Of a stretch of 64,000 nucleotides of DNA, positions 18,201 through 21,200 are shown piece by piece. This stretch comes from Escherichia coli. GTDB lineage: Bacteria > Pseudomonadota > Gammaproteobacteria > Enterobacterales > Enterobacteriaceae. A program made the position numbers. The stretch lies in NCBI RefSeq assembly GCF_044324785.1, contig NZ_CP172128.1; one strand, 5' to 3'. Position 1 is the first letter of the stretch; each line of letters opens with the position of its first letter.

Positions 18201-21200
18201 CGTCAGAAACACAAACGCCCCGCAGAGAAAATTCGCCAACATTCTCCTTTTTAATGGCGCGCAATGCATCGCGGCAGGCCCGTTCGGTATGAAAGGCCTG
18301 GCTGTGCACCGCCAGTGTGGGCTGACGGGCATCACCGGAAGAGACATTAAAGGGCGATGAAAGCCAGAAAATCAGTAGCCACATGCGTCACACCTCGTCC
18401 TTTTTATGCGGGTATCTGGACAGAATATTGAGCGCCTGTAATGGCGCTTCATGCATTTCACGGATACAACGGGCATCGGTGATATTTTCCCGGTAATGTG
18501 TGGTTTCCAGCATCATATGATGCATATGGAGCATCCGGGCCAGGGCTGCGCGGAGTTCTTCAATATGTTGTTCATGGGAATGCTGGCGGGGCTGTATCCG
18601 GCAGAGAGGGATAACCTCCACATCATCCGGGTGCGCGCGAAGCCACGCGTCAGTGACTGCAATGTCGTCAGTGTAAAACCATGTGCCGGATGTCCCGTTG
18701 GCCAGAAAACGCATTTTCCAGGCTTCTGGGGTGGCGGTTGTGTTGTTATCTTTCATGGTGCCACCACTCATTCAACAGGCTTAATGCTGTCCAGGCGCAG
18801 TCTGCTCAGACTGTCGTGGCTGCCACAGCGGCGTCCGGTGCTTTTGCTGTAGCACTCCTGCCCCCTGATACACCATGCCGTTGGCGTTTCGTAGAGGCTG
18901 ACACGTCGGGTTTTATCTTTAATGATGAGAAGCCCGGTGTGAGTTTTTGTCTTTTTCATCGGTGGGGTACAAACGCAGAAATTTTGTTGTCATTACATCA
19001 TCAGTTTTAGCCTGCAGAGACGCTGAAAAATCAGCGTTTTCAGACCCTGTTCAGGTTAGTGAATATTCTTGCCTGGCCTTTCGGCAATATCAATCCCCTG
19101 GAGTTGCATGGATATGCCCATACCGTTGACCATGAGGCTGTTTATGGACTGAACACCACATTTCATCATGAGCTCAAAACACAGTGCGCTGAGCATGCCG
19201 AGCGCCTCTTCTGAGGACTGGCAGTGTGTATTCAAAAGAGTATTGAACTGTTTAACGATATCCGGGGTGAGGCACATACTTTGTATTTCGTCTTTCATGA
19301 CTACTCCTTATTTCAGGCATTTTGCATTTTGGGTTAATAACACGAAGCCCGTAGACGGAAAACCTGAGGCGTTCGGATGGGATAATTCCCGGGTATTTTC
19401 CTGTTCCGGATACAAAAAATATAACGGCATGAAAAGGATTGTGGCGGACAGGAAAACAATTAGAATAGCTGCGGGCGCTTGAGGCTGTATGCCGAAAGCG
19501 TTTTGTGGACGGCATGCAGCAGAAAGCCCCAGGCGATCTTTTTATCAATCAACCCAGGGCCCACTGTAATGCCTCAACAACATTATAGTAGCCCGATGAC
19601 GGCCGAAAGGCAATGGAGGGGCTGCGATGCCACAACGAACGTTTTTAATAATGTTAATCGTCGTCTGTGTGACGATACTGTGTTTTGTCTGGATGGTGAG
19701 GGATTCGCTTTGCGGATTTCGTATCGAGCAGGGAAATACGGTGCTTGTGGCAACGTTAGCCTACGAAGTTAAACGTTAACGGGCAACACGGCGGCAGGAC
19801 ATCTGCCGCCGGATTGTTGCGAAGGCTGACCTCAATGCGCCTTGTTTGTCTTTTTTACCGGACGATGGATCCCACTCCTCCTCATCAGTTCGTAGCAGAG
19901 TGTACTCAGCATGGCAAGTGCAGCTTCTGATGATTTACAGTGTGTATTCAGGAGGGTAAGAAATTGTTTAAAAACATCAGGGTTTATACTGGTGCTTTGA
20001 TATTCGTTACTCATAGTATTTCCTTTCAGGTCATTATTACTTCCGGATTTAACATGATGTCTGTAACCATAAAATAATGAACGTGTTCCGGGAGTCCTTG
20101 CCGTGTAGTTTCCCGTAAAAATACTGTTGTGCATTACATGTCATTAGGTGGAAACCGATTGTGGCAGACTGAAAATCGATTAGAATAGCGGCGGGCGCTT
20201 GAGGCTGTATGCTGAAAGCGTTTTGTGGACGGCATGCAGCAGAAAGCCCCAGGCGATTTTTTTATCAATCAACCCAGGGCTCTACTGTAATGCATCGACA
20301 ACATTATAGTAGCCCGATGACGGCCGAAAGGCAATGGAGGGGCTGCGATGCCACAACGAACGTTTTTAATAATGTTAATCGTCGTCTGTGTGACGATACT
20401 GTGTTTTGTCTGGATGGTGAGGGATTCGCTTTGCGGATTCCGTGTCGAGCAGGGAAACACAGTGCTTGTGGCAACGTTAGCCTACGAAGTTAAACGTTAA
20501 CGGGCAACACGGCGGCAGGAAATCTGCCGCCGGATTGTTGCGAAAGCAAACCTCAATGCGCCCTTTTTTACCTGGATTTCTGCAGCGCGTTTCAGCATAG
20601 CATGCAGTTCTGTGCTGATCCTTGCTTCCAGTCGGGCAGTTTGTGTTGCAGATGGCATGATTTGTACTTCCTGAATATACTGAACGGCAAATTGCCGTAT
20701 TGTGCTAATTACAGTCTGATACAGGGACGGCAGACAGGCATTCTGCCTGAAAAGAAAAAGCCGGTTCAGAGAAAACCGGCTGACGGATTACCGTCTAACA
20801 GTTGGTCGCTACCTTACAATACTTCTGCAACAGGCACACCGGCAACTTTTTCCCATTCTTTAACCCGATACCGAATCATCTGCGGGAAACGCTCTTTGTA
20901 CTCATATCCACGTGCAGCCATGGTGTGCATGGTGTTGGCCAGCGTCCTTGCTGAGATGCCGGAGATTTCAAGAGGGATCATCGGCAGACTCACATAGGTG
21001 GTGTGGATTTCCAGCTTGCCGTCTTCAGCAACTGTTCGGGTGAAGTTGTGAATATCCAGACCAATCACATCCATGACATTGTTTGGGTAAATGCGCACAT
21101 ACAGCATGGTGCCGTTTTTAATGTCGATCCCGAAATAGCAACTCTTCGAGAATGACAGTTGCTCGTAATCGCTGGTCGGCGCAAAGGGACTGCTTTCTTT

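Follow-up and report, generated by a model that had tools for sequence, protein, structure and literature searches.

An antitoxin-like small ORF beside the pnd locus of an IncK2/Z plasmid is very probably a deletion-derived tacA pseudogene

The DNA analyzed here, a 64,000-nucleotide stretch of Escherichia coli contig NZ_CP172128.1 (hereafter the window), is part of a conjugative plasmid of the I complex, typed as IncK2/Z. In the window, the genes traW, traX, traY, and excA, all on the minus strand, are followed by a 53-amino-acid (aa) ORF and then by two tandem pnd/hok-sok units. The ORF occupies positions 20497 to 20658 of the minus strand, and translation of the window gives MPSATQTARLEARISTELHAMLKRAAEIQVKKGALRFAFATIRRQISCRRVAR. 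An earlier, sequence-only reading of this DNA had pointed out this minus-strand ORF across the stop codon of the second hok copy, together with a ribosome-binding site, and both its coordinates and its Shine-Dalgarno sequence were confirmed. The latter, AGGAAG, lies at 20667 to 20672, 8 nt from the ATG, while at the other end the stop codon of the ORF overlaps by 4 bp that of pndA copy 2, which is encoded on the plus strand at 20348 to 20500. A terminator scan placed the intrinsic terminator of excA at 20759 to 20781 (minus strand), directly upstream of the tacA promoter region discussed below. The stretch containing the ORF is identical in E. coli plasmid pE32-3, in which no 53-aa ORF was called by PGAP. 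The exact ORF sequence is present on at least 1,000 contigs; elsewhere in the databases the ORF is labeled "antitoxin," "DUF1778 family," or "hypothetical protein," the variant in the window being WP_001138649.1 and the variant in poultry IncK2 plasmids being WP_021580032.1.

The two pnd units are direct repeats, at 19431 to 19847 and 20151 to 20568, and each contains a match to the Rfam sok family (RF01794), at 19473 to 19629 and 20193 to 20350, the latter scoring 119.7 bits. Copy 2, on the plus strand and thus convergent with the ORF, has the composition of a hok/sok (pnd) locus, with a 50-aa Hok/Gef ORF at 20348 to 20500 and an upstream sok-like antisense RNA region, and its gene is annotated as Hok/Gef in identical plasmids. 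Canonical IncI1 plasmids match window positions 20501 to 20569 as pnd 3′ sequence, and the internal duplication of pnd extends to 20568. For both reasons, codons 30 to 53 of the 53-aa ORF, which with the stop codon span 20497 to 20571, are an antisense reading of the 3′ untranslated region (UTR) of the pnd copy 2 mRNA, including its long terminal hairpin. The ORF thus shares sequence and overlapping stop codons with a type I toxin-antitoxin (TA) system of I-complex plasmids (R64 pndAC; RF01794) but is no part of that system, the overlap having been created by the deletion described below.

The first 29 codons of the ORF (20572 to 20658) have a different origin. The sequence-only reading had noted an N terminus resembling DUF1778/ribbon-helix-helix (RHH) antitoxins, with the family pattern then lost, and this description proved exact, as the homology ends after ...AAEIQ at the boundary of codons 29 and 30. 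In a profile search, the Pfam family TacA1/DUF1778 (PF08681) matched residues 9 to 31 of the ORF with an E value of 4e-4. The score of 20.7 bits falls 0.3 bits short of the gathering cutoff of 21, and only positions 1 to 23 of the 80 profile positions are covered; a scan of the ORF against NCBIfam gave no match. A weak Pfam match of the ORF to HicB (E = 0.02 to 0.06) was read as a cross-match within the RHH superfamily. Codons 30 to 53 showed no family similarity in Pfam. A database search returned numerous DUF1778 proteins of 93 aa that are 90 to 100% identical to the ORF over residues 1 to 29 and then continue GRTMTDFIISAVQ..., where the ORF reads VKKGALRF... One of them, an intact 93-aa E. 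coli protein (P0019) that carries PF08681, is 100% identical to the ORF over residues 1 to 29, and its gene is followed, after 5 bp, by a gene for a 162-aa GNAT acetyltransferase. The two genes make up a canonical module of the TacA-TacT, KacA-KacT, and AtaR-AtaT type, and P0019 aligns over its full length with the antitoxins KacA (5ZGN), AtaR (6AJM/6GTS), and TacA (7AK7). In tblastn, the tacA fragment in the window was recovered with an E value of 1e-14; its DNA is collinear with the intact copies L004 to L007, and DNA and protein homology to intact tacA both end at codon 29/30. The earlier suggestion that the ORF is the remnant of a type II antitoxin therefore holds.

What has been retained and what has been lost can be read from the characterized relatives. 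KacA and AtaR recognize a palindrome in their promoters through β-strand residues R8, D10, and R12, the RHH domain binding the palindromic operator, and the C-terminal residues 61 to 88 of KacA bind the toxin KacT (PMC6698736). Residues R9, E11, and R13 of the ORF align with the three DNA-contacting residues of KacA and are kept in the 29-residue stump, which corresponds to the RHH β-strand and helix 1. The complete RHH fold (β1-α1-α2) is absent, since homology reaches no further than Q29, leaving out the turn at G30 and helix 2 behind it. Helix 2 is required for the dimeric RHH fold. The C-terminal segment that binds and neutralizes the toxin is also absent, codons 30 to 93 having been deleted. 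No significant match to TacT was found by tblastn in the whole window, with no GNAT toxin gene adjacent downstream of the ORF, and no second TacA was found in the window; the GNAT toxin gene is present in the intact relatives (L004 to L007 and L012 to L019). Compared with the RHH-GNAT type II modules TacA-TacT, KacA-KacT, and AtaR-AtaT, the likeness lies in the first 29 residues, the putative promoter region, and the palindrome as a probable operator, whereas only 29 of 93 codons are left and helix 2, the toxin-neutralizing C terminus, and the toxin gene are gone from the window.

These losses bear on the small autoregulator that the sequence-only reading had offered as an alternative, taken here to mean that the 53-aa product works as an RHH-like regulator or DNA-binding protein with the nearby palindrome as its operator. 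Retention of R9, E11, and R13, the presence of a start codon, Shine-Dalgarno sequence, and palindrome, and the occurrence of the exact sequence on so many contigs would all fit such a protein. Yet helix 2 is deleted, the Pfam score falls below the cutoff with nothing in NCBIfam, and the tail is antisense UTR sequence in which we found replacement variants (L35V, F37S, A40T/E, I46R/M, and R53H) as well as frameshifts. One variant of the ORF carries R13M, replacing a DNA-contacting residue, and the operator is degraded in several lineages, as are the −10, −35, and Shine-Dalgarno sequences. An AF2 single-sequence model of the ORF consisted of one long helix with high pLDDT and no β-α-α fold, which is weak evidence, being a typical outcome of single-sequence prediction. 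We consider a functional autoregulator very improbable, and the stump, lacking RHH helix 2 and the toxin-binding C terminus, is most likely nonfunctional.

Comparison with related plasmids, which the sequence-only reading had recommended, revealed the intact tacA-tacT pair at the same junction, between excA and hok. In IncK2/Z plasmids, the order is traY, excA, the 93-aa DUF1778 gene, the 162-aa GNAT gene, and a convergent Hok gene. The alignment of the window with two of these plasmids (L006 and L007) is interrupted by one gap, of exactly 704 bp, with unbroken collinearity to either side; the gap takes out tacA codons 30 to 93, the 5-bp intergenic stretch, the whole of tacT, and roughly 15 bp of the sequence that follows tacT. 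The left endpoint falls within tacA codons 27 to 30, between AAATCCA and GGGACGC; the right one, between AAATCCG and GGTAAAAAAGGGCGC, is some 15 bp after the stop codon of tacT, where the pnd unit has its outer limit. In the intact parent, both endpoints lie in an imperfect direct repeat, AAATCC(A/G)GG, matching at 8 of 9 positions. In the window, the junction falls at 20571 to 20572 and is ambiguous within a GG, codon 29 (CAG) being at 20572 to 20574, and there is no extra inserted sequence. The locus bears the marks of a pseudogene formed by deletion: flanks collinear with an intact homologue in the same place, only one gap, and short direct repeats where that gap begins and ends.

This comparison also bears on how the toxin was lost. 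The sequence-only reading had supposed that the toxin partner may have been replaced when the hok block arrived. The break falls at the outer limit of the pnd unit, and pnd is duplicated in the window; both would agree with an insertion that displaced the toxin and the 3′ half of the antitoxin. However, L006 and L007 already carry the same hok copy, at the same position and in the same orientation, just beyond an intact tacT, and because hok sits in the same place in the intact relatives, it was not the displacer of the toxin. The collinear flanks, the simple 704-bp gap between 8/9 repeats, and the clean junction likewise speak against displacement by hok, which has next to no chance of being correct.

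The deletion is probably one inherited event, and the remnant is now much commoner than its intact parent. The same junction is present in 136 plasmids in PLSDB, 128 of them at ≥99% identity and almost all from E. coli; this count is junction specific and replaces a first estimate of about 458, which probably took in short excA-proximal matches. The intact pair was found in nine PLSDB plasmids, all those inspected being IncK2/Z. Among complete E. coli genomes, the remnant records listed span 307 bp versus 1,011 bp for the intact query, a difference of 704 bp, and the intact pair was present in 18 of 5,426 genomes. The tacAT module is thus lost from most plasmids of this backbone. The sequence-only reading would have been refuted by the lack of a profile match together with a lack of conservation; instead, the TacA1 match, the 100% identity of the first 29 residues to intact TacA proteins, and the conservation of the ORF in at least 136 plasmids were found. 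A 33-aa protein (P0008) was tried as a possible independent disruption of tacA and rejected, as it is a remnant copy with the promoter changes specific to remnants; unrelated sequence abuts its junction just before the contig end, and that sequence may resemble an IS903-group terminal repeat.

Upstream of the ORF lies ACGGCAAATTGCCGT, at 20684 to 20698, which the sequence-only reading had called a perfect 15-bp palindrome. Its two 7-bp arms are indeed perfect; a 15-mer, however, cannot be perfect throughout, and the arms flank one central base. Palindromes of this 7-1-7 form are not enriched beyond chance in the window (7, versus 4.1 ± 2.0 in shuffled sequences), and the element carries weight only through its conservation in front of intact tacA genes. 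The four intact copies of E. coli type (L004 to L007) all have it as an 8-1-8 palindrome, TACGGCAATTTGCCGTA in the tacA sense, at −41 to −25 from the ATG, corresponding to 20683 to 20699 in the window, where a substitution at 20683 has reduced it to 7-1-7. Distant tacA-GNAT loci from Thiocapsa, a Gallionellaceae MAG, and several metagenome contigs have the same half-sites, located at −41 to −43, in the forms TACGGCA-ATC-TGCCGTA, GTACGGC-GTACA-GCCGTAC, and CGGCA-AWC-TGCCG. The N termini encoded by these loci are about 93 to 97% identical over 29 residues, with otherwise no evident similarity in the upstream DNA. In all intact loci examined, the palindrome is followed by TACAGT, TACATT, TACAAT, TACCTT, or TACCCT, in which A2 and T6 are invariant.

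These patterns suggest that the palindrome is the ancestral TacA operator, located in the promoter spacer and overlapping the −10 element, with TTGCAC serving as a weak −35 element 17 nt farther upstream. In the window, the putative −10 element reads TTCAGT (20679 to 20684, minus strand; ancestral TACAGT), so that its second base is no longer A, and it shares bases with the right arm of the operator; the putative −35 element reads TAGCAC (20702 to 20707, minus strand; ancestral TTGCAC), with a 17-nt spacer between the two. A σ70 consensus scan predicted no promoter on the tacA strand, either in the window or in intact L006, so the promoter assignment draws on comparative conservation. The operator reading agrees with the published recognition of a promoter palindrome by KacA and AtaR (PMC6698736); in KacAT and AtaRT the palindrome is the RHH binding site, and here the same role is supported by comparative conservation. 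A literature search for operator palindromes of DUF1778-GNAT modules returned nothing.

The remnant copies are not keeping the regulatory sequences of the intact loci. Every remnant examined has an A>T change at −25 relative to all intact copies, by which the −10 A and the outer operator base pair are lost and the 7-1-7 form is left. A T>A change at −48 (TTGCAC>TAGCAC) occurs in seven of eight remnants examined and in none of the four intact copies; in the eighth remnant (L009), an IS has replaced the −48 stretch. Most remnant copies also have a Shine-Dalgarno sequence changed from AGGAGG to AGGAAG, a change found in both sublineages but lacking in L011. Further changes are confined to individual lineages. 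A poultry IncK2 sublineage (pTMSA992, pZPK-H58, and pCMY166) carries C>A at −29 in an operator arm (TTGCCGT>TTGACGT), the IS of L009, a Shigella plasmid, is an IS66-family element that cuts through the operator, and the sublineage of the window has an extra G>A change at −20 (20678), creating TATATT, which could serve as a replacement −10 element. Over the 205 nt common to both intact lineages, five of the six derived substitution sites fall in the 50-nt promoter/operator/Shine-Dalgarno block (binomial P = 0.004, a post hoc value); the remaining site is a synonymous change in the 87 coding nt, and none lies at −118 to −51. Apart from this one synonymous change, all copies examined have kept the ATG, the weakened Shine-Dalgarno sequence, and the first 29 codons intact, which could reflect either a recent origin or some constraint, the divergence being too low to tell. 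The mutations in the regulatory block may be due either to drift after loss of function, with a local hot spot, or to selection for silencing an unrepressed promoter that points into pnd.

The orientation of this promoter region raises the question of whether the stump now acts as a cis-antisense regulator, with the orphan tacA promoter still firing and an antisense transcript across the 3′ end of the pnd mRNA into pndA modulating maturation or translation of the killer mRNA. The geometry is convergent, the minus strand from the junction to pndA showed no canonical intrinsic terminator in a terminator scan, and such a transcript would traverse the fold-back element and the terminal hairpin. 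The remnant is also far commoner than the intact pair (136 versus 9 plasmids), an ORF of matching description has been associated with host origin in a genome-wide association study (GWAS) considered below, and TATATT could preserve a −10 element in the lineage of the window. On the other hand, the shared derived changes strike the best-supported −35 and −10 positions and the Shine-Dalgarno sequence, and the mutated operator arm in another lineage and the IS in the promoter of one plasmid fit silencing or decay rather than maintenance. Moreover, the tacAT operon ran toward pnd even before the deletion, which created nothing new in this respect. We regard co-option as a cis-antisense regulator, the main alternative left, as quite unlikely, although a residual or new role of some kind may exist for the stump.

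The ORF is, with high confidence, best explained as a deletion-derived tacA pseudogene, a nonfunctional gene scar whose expression signals are eroding. In the sequence of events that we propose, a TacA-TacT (RHH-GNAT) module once stood between excA and pnd on the I-complex (IncK2/Z) backbone, and a 704-bp deletion between the AAATCC(A/G)GG repeats, most likely by replication slippage or a microhomology-mediated process, brought codon 29 up against the outer boundary of the convergent, hok-type pnd locus. The reading frame then stays open by accident for 24 codons of antisense pnd 3′ UTR, until a stop codon that overlaps the pndA stop codon. The upstream palindrome is probably the former TacA operator, placed within the spacer of the putative tacAT promoter and overlapping its −10 element. 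Since neither repressor nor toxin remains, the stump would have neither an antitoxin nor an autoregulatory role, and its expression signals are being worn away.

A recent pan-GWAS of IncK2 plasmids (Microb Genom 2026, PMC12987596) reported a hypothetical gene, WP_001546474, adjacent to hok/sok, which was first annotated as "antitoxin" and later as "hypothetical protein" and has about 60 nt in common with hok/sok. The gene was weakly associated with chicken-derived IncK2 plasmids (P = 0.0451), and its origin and function were left open (PMC12987596). By description, including the hok/sok neighbor and the changing labels, WP_001546474 fits the family of the ORF studied here; it differs in accession, as WP_001138649.1 and WP_021580032.1 were the only ones found at this site and WP_001546474 was not matched there. 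If WP_001546474 is this ORF, the association most likely marks the plasmid lineage carrying the deletion and not a functional gene, and the chicken association may simply be a lineage marker. It is very unlikely, in our estimation, that the repeated promoter, operator, and Shine-Dalgarno mutations reflect positive selection for silencing antisense transcription into pnd, or that the stump transcript tunes the hok-type killer and contributes to the association with chicken-adapted IncK2 plasmids. Were either the case, a live type I TA module and what is left of a type II module would be in cross talk at this locus.

The origin of the ORF is explained here as that of an ordinary pseudogene of a well-known TA family, and the main value of this explanation is for annotation. 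As a truncated tacA joined to antisense hok 3′ UTR, the ORF should be annotated as a pseudogene or remnant, and its presence or absence probably marks plasmid lineage, separating the deletion from intact or other cargo at the excA-pnd hot spot. As a by-product, the comparison points to a likely operator, of the TACGGCA-N-TGCCGTA type, and a likely −10 element for this TacA subfamily.

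Comparison of relatives of the plasmid (L006, L008, L010, and L021 to L023) showed that the excA-pnd intergenic region is a cargo hotspot. At this junction, most IncK2 plasmids carry the tacA stump, the first 29 codons of the DUF1778 antitoxin gene, and a few carry the intact tacAT antitoxin-toxin pair; canonical IncI1/B/O plasmids possess a 1.6-kb gene with a TnsA endonuclease N domain. In some IncK2 plasmids, a "HEAT repeat" ORF of roughly 210 bp separates excA from the tacA promoter. Even IncI1 plasmids without any tacA sequence keep about 50 bp of the region upstream of tacA (window about 20726-20776).

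On the other side of the junction, the pnd/hok-sok unit is present in the window as two tandem copies (19431-19847 and 20151-20568) with 92-96% mutual identity and a spacing of about 720 bp. Copy 1 is preceded by an ORF of 80 aa (19056-19298, minus strand) and copy 2 by a paralogous ORF of 100 aa (19832-20134, minus strand). Related plasmids carry one or two copies of the unit, and in L007, an IncK2/Z plasmid with intact tacAT, a VapBC pair separates the two hok copies.

Fold-back pairing is known for hok-family mRNAs. In pnd copy 2, the 5' element GGCGCTTGAGG (20190-20212) is complementary, except for one extra base, to the 3' element CCTCAATGCGCC (20553-20564), an arrangement consistent with such pairing. 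CCTCAATGCGCC lies immediately inside the junction of the 704-bp deletion, which left both this element and the T-run untouched.

Intact tacAT of 100% identity was also observed on an E. coli contig (L004; GCA_043780935.1, DAZIGK010000016.1) that encodes, a few kilobases upstream (1-1595), ThiF, Prok-JAB, and SAVED-domain genes, which look like a CBASS-type defence cluster. In Thiocapsa rosea (L020, 1201-1479), a TacA homologue of 92 aa retains the conserved operator, and no GNAT gene was called downstream of it; this orphan may be a solo antitoxin or a further decayed module.

Secondary changes were observed at the stump. In the Shigella plasmid L009 (NZ_CP055115.1, about 3380-3440), the operator is interrupted by an insertion of ISCro1, of the IS66 family. 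In L025 (about 3088-3164), the deletion junction is abutted, just ahead of the contig end, by unrelated sequence that may be an IS903-group terminal repeat, which it resembles.
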